Translations under genes and position numbers: made by a program
Part shown: positions 8,888 to 28,688 of the stretch, piece after piece
Layout: every line of letters begins with the position of its first letter
Position numbering within the stretch: position 1 is the stretch's first letter
DNA from: Wolbachia endosymbiont of Drosophila innubila
GTDB lineage: Bacteria > Pseudomonadota > Alphaproteobacteria > Rickettsiales > Anaplasmataceae
Direction of reading: 5' to 3'
Length of the DNA: 32,000 bases
NCBI RefSeq assembly: GCF_021378375.1
Contig: NZ_CP076228.1
Coordinates: 240,001-272,000 of the forward strand
Notes under the pieces: model-generated
Told to the model about the DNA's origin: nothing
The model's database searches: none
What the model saw: the letters and a program-made list of their open reading frames with translations, nothing else

Positions 8888-8964
8888 CATAGAAGCCGAT
8901 TGGGTTTCATAAATGCAAGTCACTATTAATTTCTTGATTAATAGACTAAATGATGTTATAAATT

Positions 8965-9054
8965 ACACGCATTAGGGGTGCTCTAGAAAAGCTGAGAGTA
9001 CATAAAGTACAACCCTTTGAACCTGATATTGTTAAAGCAAGCGTAGGAAAATGT
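8965..9054 (+). promoter_or_regulatory. TPP (thiamine pyrophosphate) riboswitch / THI-box
   Basis: All conserved THI-box blocks are present in order: GGGGTGC (8975-8981), CTGAGA (8992-8997), ACCCTTTGAACCTGAT (9012-9026) and GCGTAGG (9041-9047). A putative P1 pairs 8965-8973 with 9050-9058 (8 of 9 pairs including one G-U), covering the AGGAAAA SD-like stretch and the ATG at 9055. Confidence 0.87.
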
Positions 9055-9330
9055 ATGTATATAAATATTGAAGAATGCTTCGGCTTCATTGCGTTAATTG
9101 CATCTCTAATTGGATTATCACCTCAAGTATATAAAGCATATATCACTAAAGTTACTCGTGATGTATCGATGTTAATGTTAGTAAACTATCTTATTTGTTC
9201 ATTGTCTTGGATTGGCTATGGTCTTTACCAGAGCTCAATTTTTGTGGTGCTTAGCAATATTGCTGGATTAGTGATTAGCATAATATCAATTATTCAAAAA
9301 TGTTACTACGATGCAAAACCTGCACCATGA
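9055..9330 (+). CDS. PQ-loop / semiSWEET-like 3-TM mini-transporter (candidate thiamine importer)
   Basis: 91 aa with three predicted TM helices and a PQ motif in TM1 (LSPQVYKAY). This size and topology fit bacterial semiSWEETs. The start codon lies inside the riboswitch expression platform. Confidence 0.78.
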   Translation: MYINIEECFGFIALIASLIGLSPQVYKAYITKVTRDVSMLMLVNYLICSLSWIGYGLYQSSIFVVLSNIAGLVISIISIIQKCYYDAKPAP

Positions 9331-10003
9331 TCATGTGCTGCACTGCAGTACACAACAACAATATCGTTCTATTGTAGTGCTAAATGGAAAAATACCGAGC
9401 TCATCGTTTTTTAAACGAGATATACCTATTATTGCTGTAGATGGAGGAGCAAACAAGCTTCTATCAATTGGCGTAAAACCTGATCTTGTAGTAGGAGATT
9501 TGGATAGCGTAAATCTGGATTTACGTGCTAATTTGAATACGATATATCTACCTGATCAAGATTATTGCGACTTTTCTAAAGCAATGGCTCACTTAAAAAC
9601 AGTAAAGTTATTGCCATCAATAGTAACGGGTATTACTGGAGGAGCAATTGATCACATACTACAGAATATTAACATTTTTCTAAGTACGGGCAGTATCTTT
9701 TACACACCTTCACCTCCCATGGTAGGTTACACTTTACAAAAAGGTATTACCCATTTTTTTTCTTTGCCAAAAAATACTAAAATATCTTTACTTGGTATAC
9801 CGAGAGCTCAAATATCAACTAAAGGATTAAAATGGGAACTGCACCTTAGTAATCTTGCTTTTCCGGGAAAAAATTCTTGCTTTAATCGAAGTTTAGGCAA
9901 TAAGGTATCCGTAGAAGTACACAGTGGTATATGTCTAGCAATGATTTATTTAGAGACAGTAGATGATGCTGCAAGACATCATGTGCGTCAAGTTAAGAAG
10001 TAA
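9311..10003 (+). CDS. thiN: Thiamine pyrophosphokinase
   Basis: TPK catalytic-domain motifs IIAVDGGANKL ... VVGDLDS, followed by a thiamine-binding-type C-terminal domain. Overlaps the upstream transporter ORF by 20 nt, consistent with an operon. Confidence 0.85.
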   Translation: MQNLHHDHVLHCSTQQQYRSIVVLNGKIPSSSFFKRDIPIIAVDGGANKLLSIGVKPDLVVGDLDSVNLDLRANLNTIYLPDQDYCDFSKAMAHLKTVKLLPSIVTGITGGAIDHILQNINIFLSTGSIFYTPSPPMVGYTLQKGITHFFSLPKNTKISLLGIPRAQISTKGLKWELHLSNLAFPGKNSCFNRSLGNKVSVEVHSGICLAMIYLETVDDAARHHVRQVKK

Positions 10004-10811
10004 ATAGACTTCTTGCATAACCCAAACTAAGTAGAAAAAGGTATCATCCAAGTAGCTGACACTGGTTCCTTTATGACGTGTCATTCCAATTCCAGCTACT
10101 TGAATGACAGCAGTCCTACGTCATACCGCCGCGGTATCTCTTAGCCGCTAACAAGCAGCGGGATGACGAATTACTTAACCATCATTACACCGTCATACCG
10201 CGATTCATTCGCGGTATCTCTTAACATAGATCCCCTACTATACCTTAACATAGATCCCGCTAACACGTAGCGGGATGACGATTGTCGTTTAGCTATAAAC
10301 ATTAAGAAATTTACCAAATGAAAAAAAAGGCAAAAGAAGCCCTGGGGTTATTATCTGCTTTAAAATATTGGCGTTTTTTATGTTTTAAACGCTTGACAAG
10401 CAAGATTAAGCTGCTTTTAATTGCAACTAACTTACGCTGCAAATGTTTAAGAAGTTTACTAAGCAGAAAAAAAGACAAAGAATCCCCGAGTTAGCTAGTC
10501 TTTTACTATCTCTGTCGAGTATTGGCATTTTTTGATGTCTTGTAACGCTTTATAAGCGCGTTCAGCTTATTTAGATAAAAATCTAGATGTAGATGAAGTT
10601 TTGTAAAGACATACAGTATCTATATACTGCAAAAAATTGAACATGAGACGCCGATACATTAAGTAATCCTTACCTTTTAATCTGCAGATTGGCGAAAGCA
10701 AATACAATAGCTTCAATTTTATGATAAGGGGGCTGGCGGAGTTTGTCAAGCAAGTTTTTTCGTTTCTACTGAATGACAGTTGTGGCTTGGGAGGTAGTGC
10801 AAGAAGTCTAT
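10004..10811. repeat. Composite 808-bp non-coding repeat element (copy A), bounded by 14-bp perfect terminal inverted repeats and packed with nested palindromic elements
   Basis: ATAGACTTCTTGCA at 10004-10017 and its exact reverse complement at 10798-10811. Interior carries 'cgtcat..atgacg' double-hairpin units (10119-10168, 10191-10280), a 'ccagctact/agtagctg' unit (10044-10110) and an internal partial duplication (about 10325-10400 vs about 10470-10570). Large parts recur inverted at 14291-14740. Confidence 0.85.
10721..10749 (-). promoter_or_regulatory. Repeat-borne sigma70-type promoter (TTGACA-17 nt-TATCAT), firing leftward
   Basis: On the minus strand: TTGACA (10749-10744), a 17-nt spacer, then TATCAT (10726-10721). 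The identical module is in copy B. Confidence 0.55.
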
Positions 10812-10935
10812 TGTATTACTGAATTATTAATAATCTAGTAATAGTGCCTGCTATGTAGCTAAAATTTTCCTTTAACTTAAGCTATATGTAGCTAAAATAA
10901 CTTGGGTTTACCGACGATTTGACAAACGACAAATT

Positions 10936-10986
10936 CGTCATCCCGCTACTTGTTAGCGGGATCTAGAGATATCGCAGCGGTATGAC
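10936..10986 (+). repeat. Double-hairpin palindromic element (Wolbachia/Rickettsia palindromic-element-like)
   Basis: cgtcatcccgctacttgttagcgggatctagagatatcgcagcggtatgac. Two stem-loops (atcccgcta/tagcgggat and atatcgc/gcggtat) are enclosed by cgtcat/atgac. Lies 38 bp upstream of the mcd ATG. Confidence 0.85.
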
Positions 10987-11023
10987 CCTGACTTGCATTA
11001 GCTATGTATAATAAAGGGAATCT

Positions 11024-14290: not shown

Positions 14291-14740
14291 TCTTAAAAGA
14301 CTTCTTGTATAGTTTTTGGCAACAACCGTTAGAAACGAAAAAACTTACTTGACAAACTCCGCCAGCCCCCTTATCATGAAACTGAAGCTATTTATTTATC
14401 TTCTCTGTACAGATTAAATGACAAAAAAACTCACGTATCTGGCGTCTCATGTTTAATTTTTTGCACTATGTGCACCTTATGTCTTTATAAAACTTCTACC
14501 TACATAAGCTGAAACGCGCTTATAAAGCGTTTAAAACATAAAAAAACGCCAACTTAAAAAATGGATAGTGAATAACTAGCTACCCTAGGGTTTCTTTTGC
14601 CTTTTTTTTATTTGGTAAATTTCTTAATGTTTATGGCTAAACGACAACCGTCATCCCGCTACTTGTTAGCGGCTGAGATACCGCGGCGGTATGACGTAGG
14701 ACTGCTGTCATCCCAGTGCTTGACACTGGGATCCAGTTGA
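14291..14740. repeat. Composite repeat element (copy B), inverted relative to copy A
   Basis: The reverse complement of 14331-14390, 14480-14560 and 14590-14734 aligns with 10709-10770, 10540-10660 and 10100-10330 of copy A. It includes the double-hairpin unit 14649-14696 and the palindrome gtcatcccagtgcttgacactgggatcc (14707-14734). Confidence 0.85.
14349..14377 (+). promoter_or_regulatory. Repeat-borne sigma70-type promoter (TTGACA-17 nt-TATCAT), firing rightward
   Basis: TTGACA at 14349-14354, a 17-nt spacer, TATCAT at 14372-14377. Same module as in copy A, in the opposite orientation. Confidence 0.55.
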
Positions 14741-14988
14741 GCTATTTCAACAAAAATACTGCATTTGAGATGAACGTTCCAGACTTATTTATAAATATAA
14801 CAATTAAAGTCTGGATTCCAGCGTCAAGCACTGGAATAATATCGTTTACTATGTCTATATTACAATATTTGTGCAGTTGTGTGTCAACTACTTTTGTGGC
14901 ACCGTTTGTTATTCAATCTTTATGCTAGTTTTACTAAAAATTATAGTATTTTAGGTATAATTGCAATATCTAAATTTAAGGTATAGAG

Positions 14989-18629: not shown

Positions 18630-19016
18630 TTATAAAGACTTGGTAATAAAGATATTCGATATAGCCACAAGCAAAATGTAAGCTACTATTAATGGTATTA
18701 TGGAAATAGCACCAACGATACCACCTACTATACCTACTACCAGAGGTGACGGAGTAGTAAGGCTTAATATAATAAGTGGGAGAGATATAATTGATAGTAT
18801 TATAGAAATTACACCTACTGTTTTCAGAAGAGATAGAAATCCTTTTGAATCTAAGTGTTCTTTAATTCCCTTAAATAATATAAAGAAAATGCTTATACAC
18901 ATTATAGCACAAAGTATTACTGCTGCTATTTTTATTATAGCTGCTGCTATAAGTGCTGCTAAATAAGCTATATTCATTGCAATTATCACACACCATAATA
19001 AAAAAGTCAACTCCAT
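18630..19016 (-). CDS. Hypothetical small polytopic membrane protein
   Basis: ORF is open to 19130, but the Met at 19016 (MELTFLLWCVII..) avoids overlap with the MFS gene. About 4 very hydrophobic I/L/A-rich helices. No family recognised. Confidence 0.45.
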   Translation of the reverse strand: MELTFLLWCVIIAMNIAYLAALIAAAIIKIAAVILCAIMCISIFFILFKGIKEHLDSKGFLSLLKTVGVISIILSIISLPLIILSLTTPSPLVVGIVGGIVGAISIIPLIVAYILLVAISNIFITKSL

Positions 19017-19075
19017 ATGTTTAGGTTGTAAAATCCCAAAAAGCAGCCAGAATAGAATAAGCAAACATTTACGAA

Positions 19076-20347
19076 TTGAATTTAGTGCAAACAAGGGTGT
19101 TGATATCAACCATACTCTGCAGAATCGCAATATGGTATGACTACATGCTTTTTATTGATTTGATTAACATAATCAGCAGAGAGTTTTGTTTTGCAAAAGA
19201 TGTCTACAGTAACATACTGCAATTATTTGGAATTGTAGGGCTAGGTGCAATTGTAAGGCCACTTGGTGCATTCATATTTGGTCACGTTGGTGACAGGTAT
19301 GGAAGGAGGATAGCATTAATAATTACTATCTTGCTAATATCGATACCATCAAGTCTCATTGCATTTATTCCAAGTCACAATCAAGTAGGTATAATTTCTA
19401 CTATATTGCTTCTTGCAATCCATATAACACAAGGAATTGCACTTGGTGGTGAACAAGGAAGTTCTGTTTATCTTATAGAGCATTTATCCAGTAGGAAAGA
19501 GAACTTAGGGATGTATTTTGGAATGATGGGTTTTGGTCGCTCCATTGGCGTCTTGCTTTCTGCGGTGATAGTGATTATCTGCAAAAAAACTACTGATTTT
19601 TGTACCTGGGGTTGGAGATTGCCATTTATTTTCTCAGCTATTTTAGGATTAATTAGCGCGTATAGCATATACACATTGGGAGAAACTCCAGCATATGAAA
19701 AAAATCGAAAACAAAGAAATTTACCTGATTTGCCAATAATAGAGCTTATAAAACGCCACAAGAGAGCTCTTATACTTGCTATTTTAATATCTGTACCTGT
19801 TAATGTTGCTGTTGGATTTACCATATTTCTTCGAACTCTCGCAAAGGAAATAGCATCAGTGGATGTTTATGTAACAACATATATCAACGAAATTGTATTG
19901 ATTATAACCAGTGTATTAATGCCGATATCTTCAATAGCGTTTGGAATGTTGGCTGATAAAGTTGGAAAAGAGCGCACTGCAATCTTATTTATAGCAATTA
20001 CAATGGCACTGTGTTGTCCTGCGTTATCTATTGCATATTACTATAAAAATTATCTTGTGATTGCGTTGAGCGTAATGGTTCTCTCTATAATAGAAAGGGG
20101 TATAGTTCCCATAGGAATAGTTGCATCTGAACTCTTTCCTACCAATGTTAGATTTAGTGGTGTGAGCTTATCACGCAATATCTCTTATGCGTTACATGGA
20201 GGATTTACTCCTATGGTTTGTATTTGGTTGACTGTAACATTTCCTCAAACAAACCTTGCTGCTGGGCTTTATATAGTCTTCTGCTTGTTGATCAGTGTGG
20301 TAGCAATATTGCAAATAAAACCGCAAGATAAAAATTTTGATTTGTGA
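19076..20347 (+). CDS. MFS transporter (ProP/metabolite:H+ symporter-like)
   Basis: 12-TM-like profile with the W/EWYDY motif near TM1 (IAIWYDYMLF) and the MFS loop motif GHVGDRYGRR between TM2 and TM3. Non-ATG start (TTG 19076, or GTG 19085). Confidence 0.85.
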   Translation: MNLVQTRVLISTILCRIAIWYDYMLFIDLINIISREFCFAKDVYSNILQLFGIVGLGAIVRPLGAFIFGHVGDRYGRRIALIITILLISIPSSLIAFIPSHNQVGIISTILLLAIHITQGIALGGEQGSSVYLIEHLSSRKENLGMYFGMMGFGRSIGVLLSAVIVIICKKTTDFCTWGWRLPFIFSAILGLISAYSIYTLGETPAYEKNRKQRNLPDLPIIELIKRHKRALILAILISVPVNVAVGFTIFLRTLAKEIASVDVYVTTYINEIVLIITSVLMPISSIAFGMLADKVGKERTAILFIAITMALCCPALSIAYYYKNYLVIALSVMVLSIIERGIVPIGIVASELFPTNVRFSGVSLSRNISYALHGGFTPMVCIWLTVTFPQTNLAAGLYIVFCLLISVVAILQIKPQDKNFDL

Positions 20348-20387
20348 AAGTTCTCAGTTTTCTCTTAGATTTATACCGTAACCTAAA

Positions 20388-20795
20388 TTAGGTCCTTAGT
20401 TTCTCAAAAAAATCCTTTAACAAAAAAGAGCATTCTATTTCTAATATCCCACCATAAACTTCAGGTATATGGCTGCAAAATTGAAATATCTTAGCACCAT
20501 TTTCAATTCCTCCACCTTTTGGATTATAAGCTCCAAAGTACAATCGTTTAATTCTGGCAAAGGAAATAGCTTGAGCACACATCGGACATGGTTCTAATGT
20601 TACGTACATATCAGCATCACAAAGCGTGGGAGTTGAAAATGCTTGTCTGATCGCTAACATCTCTGCATGTGCAGTTGGATCGCTGGATATATTGTGTGCA
20701 GAAGAAATGATATTGTCTCCACTCACTATTACAGCACCTATGGGCACCTCATCATTTTTTTGAGCGAGTTTGGCTTGCTCTATGGCAAGCTCCAT
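20388..20795 (-). CDS. tadA: tRNA-specific adenosine deaminase
   Basis: CMP/dCMP deaminase zinc motifs HAEMLAI and PCPMCAQA. The Met at 20795 (MELAIEQAK..) matches TadA N-termini. The upstream part of the ORF (to 20915) overlaps pyrG and is not expected to be coding. Confidence 0.9.
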   Translation of the reverse strand: MELAIEQAKLAQKNDEVPIGAVIVSGDNIISSAHNISSDPTAHAEMLAIRQAFSTPTLCDADMYVTLEPCPMCAQAISFARIKRLYFGAYNPKGGGIENGAKIFQFCSHIPEVYGGILEIECSFLLKDFFEKLRT

Positions 20796-23455: not shown

Positions 23456-24193
23456 TTACTTCTTTTTCCCATTCTCATTTACTTCTTGTGCTTTTGCCCC
23501 ATCTACTTGAGTACTAAGTAATACTGCATATGTAATACCACCGGCTACGAGTGCAGATGCTACTGCTATACCAATCATTACTAACATCTCTAACTTAACT
23601 GTACGTTTAAGTGCAGTAAATGCTATCAGTCCAGCAGCAAGACCCATACCAACAGTAGCAGTGTACCGTGCTCCATTGCCTTGTTTTGGTTGCTCAGTTG
23701 TTTTGCTTTTATCTTCTAGTTTTCTATTTTTCTCCTCAGCTTCAGTCAATCGATTTTGTAAGTCTTTTATTTCATCCTTTTTGGCTTTTAACTGCTCTTT
23801 TGCAGCTTTCAATTCTGTTATTTTAACATTTTTCTCTTCTAACAATTGTACTGTGGGATGGCAAGATAGGGTTTTTACCATAATCTCCTTTTCCTCATCG
23901 TTAAGGTGTAACAGACTTTTCATTTTTTTGTGGTTAGTAAAATATTCGTTACCCTTTACCCCAACGGATTTTACATTTATGGTTACATTATCTCCTCCTA
24001 GTCCTTCTTGAGGATAAAAACCAGTAATATATAGTTGTTGATCATTTAGCGTACAATAAAACTTGTCATCAATTATAGTACCATCCCTATCTACGTCTTT
24101 ATACTTTTTGAATTCTTTATGATCATCTTTTCCTATAACAAGCACTATTTTACTTCTGTTAACCTTTATTGTACCACCCTTTAAGCTTAGCAT
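23456..24193 (-). CDS. Hypothetical tail-anchored coiled-coil protein
   Basis: ATG at 24193 (the ORF track starts at TTG 24205). Globular N-domain, then a K/E-rich heptad region (ELKAAKEQLKAKKDEIKDLQNRLTEAEEKNRKLE), two C-terminal TM helices and a basic tail. No family recognised. Confidence 0.6.
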   Translation of the reverse strand: MLSLKGGTIKVNRSKIVLVIGKDDHKEFKKYKDVDRDGTIIDDKFYCTLNDQQLYITGFYPQEGLGGDNVTINVKSVGVKGNEYFTNHKKMKSLLHLNDEEKEIMVKTLSCHPTVQLLEEKNVKITELKAAKEQLKAKKDEIKDLQNRLTEAEEKNRKLEDKSKTTEQPKQGNGARYTATVGMGLAAGLIAFTALKRTVKLEMLVMIGIAVASALVAGGITYAVLLSTQVDGAKAQEVNENGKKK

Positions 24194-24355
24194 AACGAAC
24201 CTCAATTATAATTTAACATTATATAATACCCTTAGAACCTAAGGTTAAGTAATACCTTTATCATAGCATAGAAATTTATGTTTATAAACAAAAAATTTTG
24301 GCGTAAAATTGCCGTAATTGTGCTATAGCTAAAGTAATTTAGGTTTACTGACCAT

Positions 24356-24407
24356 CGTCATTCCGCTGCTTGTTAGCGGGATCTAGAGATACCGCGGCGG
24401 TATGACG
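24356..24407 (+). repeat. Double-hairpin palindromic element, same family and orientation as 10936-10986
   Basis: cgtcattccgctgcttgttagcgggatctagagataccgcggcggtatgacg, located 35 bp upstream of the valS ATG. The flanking 'gctatagctaaagtaatttaggtttac' also resembles 10874-10910. Confidence 0.85.
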
Positions 24408-24441: not shown

Positions 24442-27036
24442 ATGTTAAAAGAAAAATACGGCTTTAAAGAAGTTGAAGACAAATGCAACATATTGTGGGA
24501 AGGCAGTAAAGTTTACAGGTGGAATGGTGAAAAGGATAACACTTTCACTATAGACACACCTCCACCGACAATATCGGGTAAATTGCATATTGGCCATATA
24601 TTTAGCTATTGCCACACGGACTTTATTGCAAGGTTTCAGCGCATGCTGGGAAAAGATGTGTTTTACCCAATTGGGTTTGATGATAATGGGCTTCCCACTG
24701 AAAGATTGGTTGAGCAAACCTATAAAACCCGCGCAAAAGAAGTTGGCAGGGAAAAATTTATAGAGATGTGCCATGAGGTTATTGAAAAATCAAAGCAAGA
24801 ATTCAAGGAATTATTTAAATCGGTCGGCATTAGTTATGACTGGGATTTGGAATATCACACGATCAGCAAGGAAACTGTGACGCTTTCACAGATGTCGTTT
24901 ATTGATCTATATAATAAAGGGTATGCATATAGAAAAATGCAGCCCATCCTTTGGGACCCGGTTGATAAAACAGCAATTGCGCAAGCAGAAATAGAAGATA
25001 AAGTTTTTGAGTCATCCTTAAATACGATAGTTTTCTCTACTGAAGAAAATGAGCAGATCAACATTGCAACTACGCGACCTGAGTTACTTCCAGCATGTGT
25101 TGCAGTTTTTTGTCATCCAGAGGATGCGCGCTACACCCATCTGATCGGAAAAACAGCCGTGGTGCCGATCACAGAGACAAAAGTTCCAATAATAGCTGAT
25201 GATAAGGTTAAAATAGATAAAGGCACTGGGCTTGTTATGTGCTGTACGTTTGGTGATGAACTCGACATATATTGGCAGCAAAAGCATAATCTACCGATGA
25301 AAATTATCATCGATCAGGATGGGAGGATGAGCCTTCATTCAGTACATGGTCAGAAGGAAGAAATATGGATCCCAGTGTCTAGGCACTGGGATGACACCAT
25401 AGGGGCTACTGGGATGACAGGAGAAAGGGCTACTCAGATGACAAAGGAAGGTGGGTGTGATCAGAAAGAAGAATGGATCCCAGTGTCAGCTACTCGGATG
25501 ACAGACGATATACTAAATGAAATAAATGGATTGAAAGTTACAGCAGCAAGAAAGCGGATAATCGAAATCCTAACTGAAAAAGGACTTTTGGTAGAAAGCA
25601 CTAACATTTCTCATTCTGTTAAGTGTGCAGAAAGATCTGGTGCACCACTTGAGATATTGCCTACTTATCAATGGTTTATCAAGACCTTAGAGCAAAAAGC
25701 TCAAGTATTAGATAAAGTAAAAGAATGCAATTGGCACCCAAGCAATATGCGTAAACGCATGGAAGTGTGGATAGAAGGGCTAAATTGGGACTGGTGCATC
25801 TCAAGGCAGCGCTATTTTGGTGTGCCATTTCCAGCGTGGTATTCCAAGCGTAAAGGAGAAGAGGGCAAAATCATCCTAGCTGAAATAAAGGCCCTACCTA
25901 TAGATCCATCGAAAGATTTACCAAAAGGGTATAGCAAAGAAGAGATTATCCCAGATCAAGATGTAATGGATACTTGGGCCACAAGTTCAATTACTCCTCA
26001 ACTAAGTGCACTGGCAGTAAACAGTGAGTTTAGCTTACCAAATCATCGCTATGATACGATATTTCCTGCAGATCTGCGCAGCCAGAGCCATGAGATAATA
26101 AGAACTTGGGCTTTTTATACTATTTTAAAGGCACATTATCATGCAAATTCTTTACCTTGGAAAAACATTATGATCAGCGGTTGGTGTTTAGCAGATGATA
26201 AGAAAAAGATGAGTAAATCAAAGGGTAACATCATCACTCCTCATGTAATACTTGAAATTTATGGAGCTGATGTAGTGCGCTATTGGGCAGCGAACTCAAG
26301 GCTTGGAGTTGATACAGTCTACTCTGAAAATACATTCAAAATTGGCAAGCGCCTCGTTACAAAACTTTGGAACGCTAGCAAGTTCGTTTCCATGTTCATG
26401 GAAAAGCATCAAGTGATGAGCATAAATTCTGCTCACGAGACAATGGATAAGTGGATATTGTCTAAGTTATACAAAGTTATAGAAAGAGCAACAAATAACC
26501 TATTACAGTTTGAATACTGCGAAGCTTTGGGCGCAATAGAGGAATTTTTTTGGAAGGATTTTTGTGATAGTTACTTGGAGTTAGTAAAAAAACGTGCGTA
26601 CGGAAGCAGTGAAGCAACCTTAAGTGCAAAACAAAGCTTGGCGTATGTGTTAAATGTTATTTTGCGGTTATTTGCACCTTTCTTGCCATACATTACAGAA
26701 GAGATATACCACCAGTTGTATAGTTATAATTCTGTACACAATCAAAGTAATTGGCCAAGCAAAGAAGAACTTATCTACGATAAATATTCAGAGGAAATGG
26801 GAGATAATGTTATTCAGATATTAAACATTATCAGAAAGATAAAGGCAGATAATAATGTATCAGTTAAGCATCTGATAAAAAAGTTGATGATAAAAGCAGA
26901 TCTACGAGAGGATAAGTTGGATCAATCCGCACAGAATGATTTGCAGGCAGTTTGCAATGCGGAAACGATAGAGTGGATGCAGTCTGAGCTTGAAACTGAA
27001 GACGAGAAATACATAGTGAATATAGATTTATATTGA
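24442..27036 (+). CDS. valS: Valine--tRNA ligase (Rickettsiales/archaeal-type), carrying an in-frame repeat insertion
   Basis: Class I aaRS HIGH motif (GKLHIGHIFSY) and KMSKS (KMSKSKGN). Editing-domain and anticodon-binding blocks are typical of ValRS. 864 aa. Confidence 0.94.
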   Translation: MLKEKYGFKEVEDKCNILWEGSKVYRWNGEKDNTFTIDTPPPTISGKLHIGHIFSYCHTDFIARFQRMLGKDVFYPIGFDDNGLPTERLVEQTYKTRAKEVGREKFIEMCHEVIEKSKQEFKELFKSVGISYDWDLEYHTISKETVTLSQMSFIDLYNKGYAYRKMQPILWDPVDKTAIAQAEIEDKVFESSLNTIVFSTEENEQINIATTRPELLPACVAVFCHPEDARYTHLIGKTAVVPITETKVPIIADDKVKIDKGTGLVMCCTFGDELDIYWQQKHNLPMKIIIDQDGRMSLHSVHGQKEEIWIPVSRHWDDTIGATGMTGERATQMTKEGGCDQKEEWIPVSATRMTDDILNEINGLKVTAARKRIIEILTEKGLLVESTNISHSVKCAERSGAPLEILPTYQWFIKTLEQKAQVLDKVKECNWHPSNMRKRMEVWIEGLNWDWCISRQRYFGVPFPAWYSKRKGEEGKIILAEIKALPIDPSKDLPKGYSKEEIIPDQDVMDTWATSSITPQLSALAVNSEFSLPNHRYDTIFPADLRSQSHEIIRTWAFYTILKAHYHANSLPWKNIMISGWCLADDKKKMSKSKGNIITPHVILEIYGADVVRYWAANSRLGVDTVYSENTFKIGKRLVTKLWNASKFVSMFMEKHQVMSINSAHETMDKWILSKLYKVIERATNNLLQFEYCEALGAIEEFFWKDFCDSYLELVKKRAYGSSEATLSAKQSLAYVLNVILRLFAPFLPYITEEIYHQLYSYNSVHNQSNWPSKEELIYDKYSEEMGDNVIQILNIIRKIKADNNVSVKHLIKKLMIKADLREDKLDQSAQNDLQAVCNAETIEWMQSELETEDEKYIVNIDLY
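25367..25503 (+). repeat. Palindromic-element-derived repeat array embedded in the valS reading frame
   Basis: ggatcccagtgtctaggcactgggatgaca (25367-25396) differs at only 2 of 28 positions (an adjacent dinucleotide) from the reverse complement of the intergenic palindrome 14707-14734. ggatcccagtgtc recurs at 25474. Units of the form (c)tact(g/c)(g/a)gatgaca occur 4 times. The array is translated as ..WIPVSRHWDDTIGATGMTGERATQMT..EEWIPVSATRMTDD.. Confidence 0.85.
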
Positions 27037-27260: not shown

Positions 27261-28688
27261 CATACGCGTCAAGTTAAGAGATTGTAAGTAAATTCAGGGA
27301 AGTTAAGGTAGATACTCTAGTTTTTCTGTACTTGTCTTTTAATGAAAATCGAGACCAAGTTATGGTAAGCTTTTTAAGAAAAACTTTCAAACTATTAACT
27401 TTATTCTTTAGTGCTAAAAATAACTCTATAACCCGCCTTTTTAGCTCAATAAATGCCTTTGTTAAGCTAAGTTCTGTATTCTTTTTCACTTCTGTGCAAC
27501 CAACTATGCCGTGAAATATAAGAATTGCGCACAATTTAGCATATAGTTCACATAATACTCTGCATGGCTTTCCTTTTAGCTTATCAAGTCTGATATGGCT
27601 TTTATACAATTTAAATAATAACTCAATTTGCCACCTTACTCTGTAAATCGTTAATACTTGCTCAGCACTAATTTTATTTTCTGGAACATTAGTTATAAAT
27701 ATTGACCAGTTCAACAATTTTTGATTTCTTTTAGAGGATGTATATCCCTGCGATCTTGCTAATCTATTAGCTTTCCTTCTTCTGGCCATAGACTGTTCTT
27801 CAGTTAGTTTCTGACATATAATTCTTACTCTAATTTTTGCTTCTTTTCCTAACAATACCTCGTTTTCTAAAAATAACTTATCCTCTAAACATTCTAATAA
27901 CTCCATTTTTGATTTGTTTCTACATCATATATGTTGGTATCGGATTTATAACGACTTATGAAATAAGCTCCTATTTCATTGATTTGTTTAAAAGAACTTG
28001 GCACAAAATAACCGAGATCAGATATTAGCAAATCATTGCTTAATATATTACTTAAATGTTTCCTATATCCCTGGTCTGATCTTACTCCCTCCGTTAAATT
28101 AAGTTGGTCTATTATCTGATTCATGTAGTCGAAAACTAATTGTAACTTTATTCCAGATTTAGTATTGCTTTCATAGCCACTGTAGCTAGTACCATAACCT
28201 TTATACATCTCTTCCATACTGTTAGGTAGAGTAATATAGCTACTGTCCAATAATTTAACACTATTAAATTGCTGTAAGATTTTGCAATCAACTTGCAAGA
28301 TATTTTTGAAGAGAAGCACAGATTCATTATACATCCTTTTCATAAATTCCACTGCTTCTTCAGTAAATCTAAAATCCAAACCTTGTTTTGTTATATCTAT
28401 CGAGTCCTCGTTTAGTAATTGACACATTGTTTCTACGCTACAATTATCAACCCCTATATTACCCAAGACCATGGCTTTTACGAACGATGAACCTTTTAGC
28501 TTTCTTTTTTTTATAAACCTTGTTGTAATTGAGATTTTGTCTGCTTTTTTCATTAAAAATTCTTTGAGCTTTTTGATAAGCTAGTTATTTTATTCATTGG
28601 TTCTCTCACTAAAAGTATTTCTGGGAGAACTTATACCTTATTATTCTATCTCTTTCATACCTTTATTTCCTTAACTTGACGCGTATGG
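27261..28688 (-). mobile_element. IS4-family insertion sequence, 1428 bp
   Basis: 18-bp perfect terminal inverted repeats: CATACGCGTCAAGTTAAG at 27261-27278 and its reverse complement at 28671-28688. Flanked by the 11-bp direct repeat GTTGCTTTGAG (27250-27260 and 28689-28699). Encodes a DDE transposase. Confidence 0.92.
27274..28553 (-). pseudogene. IS4-family DDE transposase, split into two ORFs by a 1-nt frameshift
   Basis: N-terminal ORF 27894-28553 (..LLDSSYITLP.., LLISDLGYF) and C-terminal ORF 27274-27906 (YRVRWQIELLFKLYKS, the Y-2-R-3-E-6-K signature) overlap by 13 nt at an A5 run (minus strand caaaaatgg, 27906-27910). One extra A would fuse them. Confidence 0.85.

Follow-up and report, generated by a model that had tools for sequence, protein, structure and literature searches.

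Palindromic repeats carried in-frame within the valyl-tRNA synthetase gene of a Wolbachia endosymbiont

Rickettsia palindromic elements (RPEs), reportedly described by Ogata et al. in 2000 and 2002, are said to insert in-frame in essential genes, to be translated, to lie in loops and to occur in both intergenic and coding DNA. The founding description of Wolbachia palindromic elements (WPEs) is reportedly that of Ogata, Suhre and Claverie from 2005. Here we describe the valS gene (valine--tRNA ligase, ValRS; positions 24442 to 27036, plus strand) in a stretch of 32,000 nt from the Wolbachia endosymbiont of Drosophila innubila (NCBI RefSeq assembly GCF_021378375.1, contig NZ_CP076228.1, positions 240,001 to 272,000 of the forward strand; hereafter the window). 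An initial annotation reported palindromic repeats in-frame inside this gene, an observation that is confirmed. Among described repeats we compare these with the CGTC-tagged repetitive extragenic palindromes (REPs), which have a CGTC head that is often TGTC (a CCTC variant is accepted), a CCA tail and a 5-nt loop (Di Nocera et al. 2013, PMC3733652). CGTC families 3 and 4 have a 9-bp stem starting with AT; CGTC-4 occurs in wMel and wRi "in large clusters", where it is unrelated to the WPE defined in wBm, and its representatives in R. conorii are equated with RPE-4 (PMC3733652). The published table of intragenic copies includes the peptides VIPVLDTGI in ComEC of wRi and WIPWSNHGMT in RC0283 of R. 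conorii, and valS is not listed in it (PMC3733652). Other coding sequences with such inserts are the Rickettsia phenylalanyl-tRNA synthetase beta chain (PMC1779305, PMC3767692), a biotin ligase gene with WPEs (PMC3767692), and addA, addB and priA of Wolbachia, in which in-frame "WPE-like" palindromes leave the open reading frame (ORF) unbroken (PMC4224334). In-frame palindromes in Wolbachia and Rickettsia are already known as a phenomenon; the accessible literature, which did not cover the founding WPE paper, does not name valS among the hosts, and as far as checked it is seemingly undescribed in this role.

We consider it very probable that the repeat-built segment of valS is an in-frame translated array of non-autonomous CGTC-4 REP units, carried as a passenger in a variable loop of the connective polypeptide 1 (CP1)/editing region. 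Judged on sequence, its units (A and B, described below) have the CGTC-4 head, the 9-bp stem starting with AT (decayed in unit B), the CCA tail and a match to an independently built model; the loop has 5 nt in unit B and 6 nt in unit A, and the family forms clusters and dimers as CGTC-4 does. The head is TGTC on the minus strand in both units and CGTC or TGTC in the intergenic copies, and the CCA end of both valS units gives a Trp codon on the coding strand. At the peptide level, VIPVLDTGI of wRi ComEC recurs without any change in the valS product of other strains, and WIPWSNHGMT of R. conorii is similar to WIPVSRTGMT and WIPVSRHWDD of valS. The valS array departs from the 30-nt definition of CGTC-4 in having solo half-units and decayed units. 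The initial annotation had proposed a Wolbachia counterpart of the Rickettsia palindromic elements; that proposal is supported and can be refined from an analogy to membership of the CGTC-4 class, which includes RPE-4 (PMC3733652). The link to RPE-4 itself is indicated by this published classification together with the similarity of WIPWSNHGMT to WIPVSRTGMT, rather than by an alignment of RPE-4 DNA. Like the RPEs, the valS repeats lie in-frame in an essential gene, in a loop, and belong to a family that is both intergenic and coding; the RPEs differ in belonging to another genus and in being described as 100-150 bp, as against a valS module of 30 nt, or 54 nt with a half-unit. With the "WPE-like" regions of addA, addB and priA the valS segment shares the organism, an unbroken ORF and a poor alignability between strains.

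The host gene is intact. Its ORF encodes 864 aa and is an exact match to WP_190321256.1, a protein of Wolbachia of Drosophila innubila; wMel ValRS likewise has 864 aa. Pfam identifies the class I synthetase core (tRNA-synt_1, 3.8e-81) and the anticodon-binding domain (Anticodon_1, 2.5e-37), and the frame stays open across the repeats with a full domain set, as first reported. An in-frame insertion that leaves the ORF whole, as in RPE hosts, is what the valS sequence indicates. The catalytic and editing motifs are also intact in the ValRS alignment, where HIGH, KMSKS, T210, T211, R212, D272 and D275 are invariant or nearly so, the last five being residues that we take, from the Thermus ValRS structure, to form the editing pocket. 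Using phmmer, residues 6-297 align with residues 7-301 of Thermus thermophilus ValRS (1GAX) and residues 360-804 with 308-736. The lineage-specific segment between them, residues 298-359 (25333 to 25518, plus strand), has no counterpart in Thermus ValRS and stands in place of 1GAX 302-307, a loop of ~6 residues. The insert is situated in the CP1/editing insertion, ~25 residues past the last conserved editing motif, which agrees with the initial placement within or next to that region. An AlphaFold model built from a 79-sequence alignment (mean predicted local distance difference test score (pLDDT) 86, predicted TM score 0.84, TM 0.81 to 1GAX_A) contains a single segment with pLDDT <50, residues 302-352 (nt 25345-25497), which has no secondary structure and confident flanks. 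The inserted peptide is thus predicted to be disordered, and its predicted position on the protein surface, away from the catalytic residues, resembles that of RPE inserts at the level of prediction. The added length is 51 residues when taken as the low-confidence segment and ~56-57 relative to Thermus ValRS or basal Wolbachia, close to the 45-55 first estimated. The GC content is 49% in the insert, 38% in the rest of valS and 35% in the window.

The near-identity claimed initially between this segment and the reverse complement of an intergenic palindrome at 14707-14734 survives formal alignment. In a blastn-short comparison (E=1.7e-5), TGGATCCCAGTGTCTAGGCACTGGGATGACA (25366-25396) is 93.5% identical over 31 nt to 14706-14735 taken as its reverse complement, and insert positions 25480-25501 match intergenic positions 10044-10065 at 95% over 22 nt. 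A degenerate consensus of unit A and 14706-14735 gave no further match and 0 matches in 100 shuffles, and the correspondences are not accounted for by chance. We then defined a unit by rule as a [CT]GTC head, a 9-nt stem beginning with AT, a loop of 3-7 nt, a second arm complementary to the first, and a tail of 3 nt. When as many as 2 stem mismatches were tolerated, this rule returned 7 units in the window, 5 intergenic and 2 in valS; with up to 1 mismatch it returned 34 units in 550 kb of Wolbachia loci around valS, 0 in 762 kb from other organisms and 0-1 in resampled sequence. In order to avoid circularity, a covariance model (R1) was trained on 17 aligned intergenic units from other Wolbachia genomes, with no copy from valS or the window, and searched with filters off. 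Within valS, R1 detected unit A at 47.4 bits (E ~9e-10, the second-best match of the window) and unit B at 27.1 bits (E ~9e-5). Across 71 loci (1.31 Mb), 52 of the 52 matches at E<=0.01 fell in Wolbachia loci, 14 loci having matches inside valS, and no match was obtained in the 41 non-Wolbachia loci (762 kb). Among the 17 intergenic units 5 of the 9 pairs are changed on both sides and 96.7% of the alignment cells are paired, a percentage that is partly circular as the set was pre-selected for pairing. The valS units belong to a DNA family that is restricted to Wolbachia and is otherwise intergenic in the window.

The intergenic copies in the window give the family its reference form. The copy at 14706 to 14735 (plus strand; R1 51.5 bits) reads, in the order head, arm, loop, arm and tail, TGTC-ATCCCAGTG-CTTGA-CACTGGGAT-CCA, and a copy in the opposite orientation lies at 14812 to 14841 (minus strand; 32.2 bits). 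A further copy, CGTC-ATCCCGCTA-CTTGT-TAGCGGGAT-CTA, is found at 10936 to 10965 (plus strand; 40.3 bits). A cluster of family units and variants was detected at 10040 to 10290 by blastn, rule scan and R1, including a unit at 10251-10280 (minus strand) and a CAAGTAGCTGACACTGG variant at 10044-10065. This cluster and another at 10930-10990, each composed of units and related small palindromes, flank ~640 nt (10300-10930) that contain no ORF >=80 aa; the remains of a gene, or a transcript without coding function, may lie there. Closest to valS is the copy CGTC-ATTCCGCTG-CTTGT-TAGCGGGAT-CTA at 24356 to 24385 (plus strand; 32.0 bits), 57-86 nt upstream of the start codon. It is followed by a small palindrome, ATACCGCGGCGGTAT, and the two together span 24356-24407, 35-86 nt upstream of the start, where they likely occupy the promoter or 5' untranslated region of valS.

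The repeat-built segment of valS extends over approximately 25345-25497 and comprises one intact unit, two solo half-units and one decayed unit. Unit A (25366 to 25396, minus strand) is intact and reads TGTC-ATCCCAGTG-CCTAGA-CACTGGGAT-CCA; its stem is paired at 9 of 9 positions, ATCCCAGTG with CACTGGGAT, and on the plus strand it is translated as WIPVSRHWDD. Within it lies a near-perfect palindrome (25369-25392) with two arms of 12 nt and a complementarity of 92%. Two solo half-units follow on the plus strand, each consisting of the head and one arm: GCTACTGGGATGACA at 25405 to 25419 (peptide ATGMT), recognized as a motif repeat and from a composite layout in the comparison locus L001, and GCTACTCAGATGACA at 25429 to 25443 (peptide ATQMT), a member of repeat family D1 with a spacing of 24 nt. 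The first of these is in a frame that differs from that of the same motif within unit A, which is read as HWDD. On the minus strand the half-units read TGTCATCTGAGTAGC and TGTCATCCCAGTAGC and are 24 nt apart. A 30-nt spacer, AAGGAAGGTGGGTGTGATCAGAAAGAAGAA (25444 to 25473, plus strand; peptide KEGGCDQKEE), then leads to unit B (25474 to 25503, minus strand), a decayed unit of the form TGTC-ATCCGAGTA-GCTGA-CACTGGGAT-CCA that is translated as WIPVSATRMT and has 7 of 9 stem positions paired. Read along the minus strand, the order is unit B, the spacer, the two half-units and unit A, with all heads pointing in the same direction.

The 3' part of the spacer repeats the purine-rich leader ahead of unit A (25355-25365), and the direct repeat D3 extends this correspondence to 25355-25379 and 25463-25487 (88% identical). 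Leader plus left arm have the form AGRAAGAAnnATGGATCCCAGTGTC (25 nt), with a second copy 108 nt downstream. Within the spacer, TGTGATCAG resembles what may be a decayed unit arm of other strains (IPACDQK; compared with L003, L006 and L007). There are four copies of the motif ACTSRGATGACA (25385, 25408, 25432 and 25492), and CTGGGATGACA has 4 matches with up to 1 mismatch vs 0.26 expected. Two details of the initial annotation needed adjustment here: a second GGATCCCAG is present but starts at 25475 rather than 25474, and the four ctact(g/c)(g/a)gatgaca units are all present, although the first reads gcACTGGGATGACA, with gcact in place of ctact. Openness in all six frames, which is sometimes invoked for elements of this kind, does not apply to the insert: it has 15 stops, and other stretches of valS have 17.5 on average.

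Folded as RNA, the unit A hairpin is strong (-17.8 kcal/mol, z -3.85) and equals that of the intergenic copy, for which the values are -17.7 kcal/mol and z -3.78. Unit B (-6.2 kcal/mol, z +0.47), the half-unit zone and the whole 171-nt segment (z -0.81) folded no better than shuffles, so that of the hairpins that the initial annotation proposed to follow into the mRNA, the one at unit A persists and the others do not rise above shuffle level.

Reiteration within the array had been read initially as local expansion. The layout of a full unit, a 9-nt spacer and a half-unit also occurs intergenically in another supergroup-A genome (L001, 6525-6625), and ~54 nt of it align at ~90% (manual count on the alignment) with this composite; part of the valS reiteration therefore came in with the element. 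Local change remains the apparent explanation for the copy number of the 24-nt ATRMTGER unit, of which there are two copies in the window and three in L001. Tandem Repeats Finder applied to 25250-25600 returned nothing even at a score of 30; two copies of the 24-nt half-unit, diverged as they are, do not suffice for claiming a tandem array in the window.

Comparison of alleles indicates at which level the repeats arose. At the valS site the same DNA palindrome is translated in at least three ways among strains, through different frames or orientations. Tail-first it gives WIPVSRHWDD in the window, where one additional loop nucleotide relative to L007 puts the right arm out of the TGMT frame; WIPVSRTGMT in L007, whose loop is shorter by 1 nt and whose right arm is therefore read as TGMT; and, in a second frame, RSQCQGTGMT in L008 and L009. 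In the reverse orientation it gives VIPVLDTGIQ in L002 and VIPARDAGI in L001, L003, L005, L014 and L018. Even inside the window, ACTGGGATGACA yields HWDD at one place and (A)TGMT at two. Three frames or orientations for one DNA motif place its origin at the DNA level and not at the protein level; neither an ancient domain of ValRS nor a repeat that arose in the protein can yield such a pattern.

To follow the site across relatives we parsed the segment between DQDGR. and (E)INGLK in 97 Wolbachia ValRS and in 18 relatives outside Wolbachia. Among the Wolbachia sequences the site is 4-89 residues long and exists in 71 distinct versions, ranging from no insert to ~85 extra residues, and the length polymorphism between strains that the initial annotation anticipated is accordingly large. 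The repeat-derived motifs WIPVS, IPVLDTGI, IPARDAG and xMTx are common in Wolbachia ValRS and absent from 18 of the 18 parsed non-Wolbachia sequences. The initial annotation had held that the same peptide in distant taxa would speak against an insertion of repeats; the ValRS sequences of Ehrlichia, Anaplasma and other Rickettsiales, in which the loop is 4-25 aa, do not contain it, nor do those of Thermus and of basal Wolbachia, the strains without insert being those of Tyrophagus, Pentalonia, Pentidionis and Fragariocoptes, wPpe and wTex. A search of the 54-aa insert peptide against a set of 5.8 billion proteins returned a single ValRS fragment. Alleles of supergroup A look as if they were assembled, mosaic-like, from a small set of left, central and right modules, a pattern suggestive of recombination between repeats, and units of opposite orientation sit at different loop positions in different lineages.

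The filarial strains, which we take to belong to the C and J lineages, show another state of the locus. Their palindromes have decayed by substitution, and the loop is fixed at 40 aa in L013, L017, L025 and L027; L019 bears the same decayed filarial version. Identity within the insert is 45-80% vs 79-91% for the rest of the protein, and 45-70% vs 79-86% in the more distant filarial pairs, values that we take as support for relaxed constraint on the insert in these lineages.

Taken as a passenger repeat, the array may have had the following history. At least one unit would have entered the loop in-frame in a lineage ancestral to the main Wolbachia supergroups, after which the array would have grown, shrunk and been reshuffled through insertions into existing units and through recombination or gene conversion between units, with slippage changing the copy number of the 24-nt half-unit. 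It would be tolerated because it merely lengthens a solvent-exposed loop and keeps the frame, presumably leaving the enzyme unharmed. In the long-isolated filarial lineages the palindromes would decay by point mutation while the loop length stays fixed.

Several points weigh against this account. The loop of unit A is 6 nt, and the family definition, like unit B and most copies, has 5 nt; intergenic units with a 6-nt loop (CCCAGA or CCCTGA) are also present in each of L001, L004, L006 and L007. The differences in orientation fit either several insertions at a hot spot or turnover after a single insertion. The CGTC repeats have no transposase of their own (PMC3733652). Translation of the insert is assumed from an intact and conserved ORF, and the solvent exposure of the loop is suggested by low pLDDT rather than by coordinates. 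Finally, the 40-aa loop held for so long in the filarial strains could signal an acquired role.

Of the competing explanations, the one that fares best, and which we nonetheless judge to be unlikely, is that the repeats act at the RNA level, with valS mRNA pairing with repeat-derived small RNAs (sRNAs) such as WsnRNA-46 and the insert being kept as a regulatory target. WsnRNA46 was reportedly described by Mayoral et al. in 2014. The corresponding Rfam family (RF02625) matches the window at 14686-14859 (plus strand) with 68.6 bits against a gathering score of 65.3, and according to the Rfam alignment the intergenic units at 14706-14735 and 14812-14841 are the 5' and 3' arms of its hairpin, an inverted tail-to-tail dimer. 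This published cross-kingdom sRNA locus may thus be repeat-derived, a link that is not made explicitly in the literature checked. The 3' arm of the Rfam consensus is identical to the sense strand of valS unit B at ~27 of 29 positions (~93%, manual count), and the 5' arm is near-perfectly antisense to valS 25366-25396, the predicted duplex with unit A reaching -60 kcal/mol as compared with -28 to -33 kcal/mol against ten other ORFs and -32 kcal/mol against valS minus the insert. However, such complementarity follows automatically from shared repeat ancestry and is possibly meaningless, unit A folds on itself (-17.8 kcal/mol) in competition with any duplex that a second RNA might form, and in the filarial lineages the units have been free to decay. 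The valS segment has the repeat module in common with WsnRNA46 but not the spacer or the overall hairpin. The WsnRNA46 model gave no match in valS 25250-25600 even at E<=10, and Rfam as a whole returned chance-level matches only on the insert. The WsnRNA46 model likewise had no gathering-level match in six other Wolbachia loci with unit dimers, which makes this Rfam family specific to its locus and not a model of the repeat in general.

A broader form of this idea, to which we give a low but slightly less slender chance, is that in-frame units make valS and other essential carrier genes (an ispDF-like gene in L008 and L014; murD according to the literature, although murD is not in the window) part of a repeat-based sRNA network. 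If so, WsnRNA-46 reads and effects would represent a family of repeat-derived RNAs acting on each mRNA with a translated copy, and as the hypervariable loop acquires or loses units, valS would come under sRNA control in some strains and escape it in others. Irrespective of this, reads and targets assigned to WsnRNA-46 call for caution, as they may be repeat-driven: the sRNA locus consists of this repeat and has complementarity with coding sequences in which the repeat is carried.

That the inserted peptide gained a function as protein, whether in modulation of editing, in tRNA handling or in host interaction, and is kept by selection seems very unlikely to us. In its favor, the filarial lineages C and J keep a loop of exactly 40 aa although its identity is 45-70%, and the ORF is open in every strain examined, but the peptide is hypervariable (71 versions, 4-89 aa), the same DNA is read in different frames among strains, the inserted segment is predicted to be disordered, and basal Wolbachia and all outgroups function without it. 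An intein or self-splicing intron, removed before the enzyme matures, has nothing in its favor beyond the insertion in a conserved gene and is effectively refuted: Pfam detects no intein or homing-endonuclease domain in ValRS, and no Rfam intron matches the window at the gathering threshold or 25250-25600 at E<=10. An insert of 51-57 aa is also far below the size needed for an intein. We attach next to no credence to an old ValRS-specific insertion or protein-level tandem repeat whose resemblance to the intergenic palindromes is coincidental; the natural variability of this loop in other Rickettsiales (4-25 aa) would accommodate it, and it is refuted by the nucleotide-level R1 matches and the three frames of one motif, with the other nucleotide-level matches and the absence from outgroups also speaking against it.

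On the favored interpretation as a tolerated passenger, valS is not the host of a new kind of element but a clean case of selfish palindromic DNA carried and translated inside an essential enzyme of translation. The strains form a natural series, from no insert (basal) through intact hairpins (supergroups A and B) to decayed, length-conserved loops (filarial). The hypervariable site is a potential high-resolution marker for strain typing, and at the same time a pitfall where valS enters pipelines for alignment, phylogeny or dN/dS. The wMel ValRS allele, for its part, contains a WIPVSGHWDDTIGATGMTGER stretch.

The same family was seen in a second gene. A bifunctional ORF named IspD/IspF-like from its sequence (L008, 350-2026; L014, 1589-2971) carries in-frame units, four in L008 and one in L014 (for example EEWIPVSRTGMTEGV and MDPSSHATWMTEGV), those of L008 lying within repeated blocks of ~48 aa, and this would make it another essential enzyme that hosts the repeat family of valS. 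Under the name of Drosophila ananassae 'valine--tRNA ligase isoform X1/X2', two annotated proteins (P0031 and P0036) are 87-88% identical to the window ValRS and have the repeat-derived PHPGVMKVADTG loop; they are probably Wolbachia DNA, present by lateral transfer or as contamination, annotated as host genes.

Other features, most of them in the window, were noted in passing. Upstream of valS, at 23456-24205 (minus strand), a 249-aa ORF has a K/E-rich, coiled-coil-like center and a hydrophobic C-terminus and has no Pfam match. Just downstream of valS, at 27274-28553 (minus strand), two overlapping ORFs of 210 and 219 aa, the first with a partial DDE_Tnp_1 domain, look like a split or frameshifted insertion sequence element that is not of the REP-linked tyrosine-transposase type. 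In Wolbachia of Laodelphax striatellus (L007), group II intron RNA domains (RF01999 and RF00029) occur at 18920-20717 (minus strand), ~6-8 kb downstream of valS in that locus. At the other side of the window, a thiamine pyrophosphate (TPP) riboswitch at 8964-9066 (plus strand; Rfam RF00059, 74.1 bits) lies directly upstream of a hydrophobic 91-aa ORF (9055-9330), which in turn overlaps the next ORF (9311-10003).

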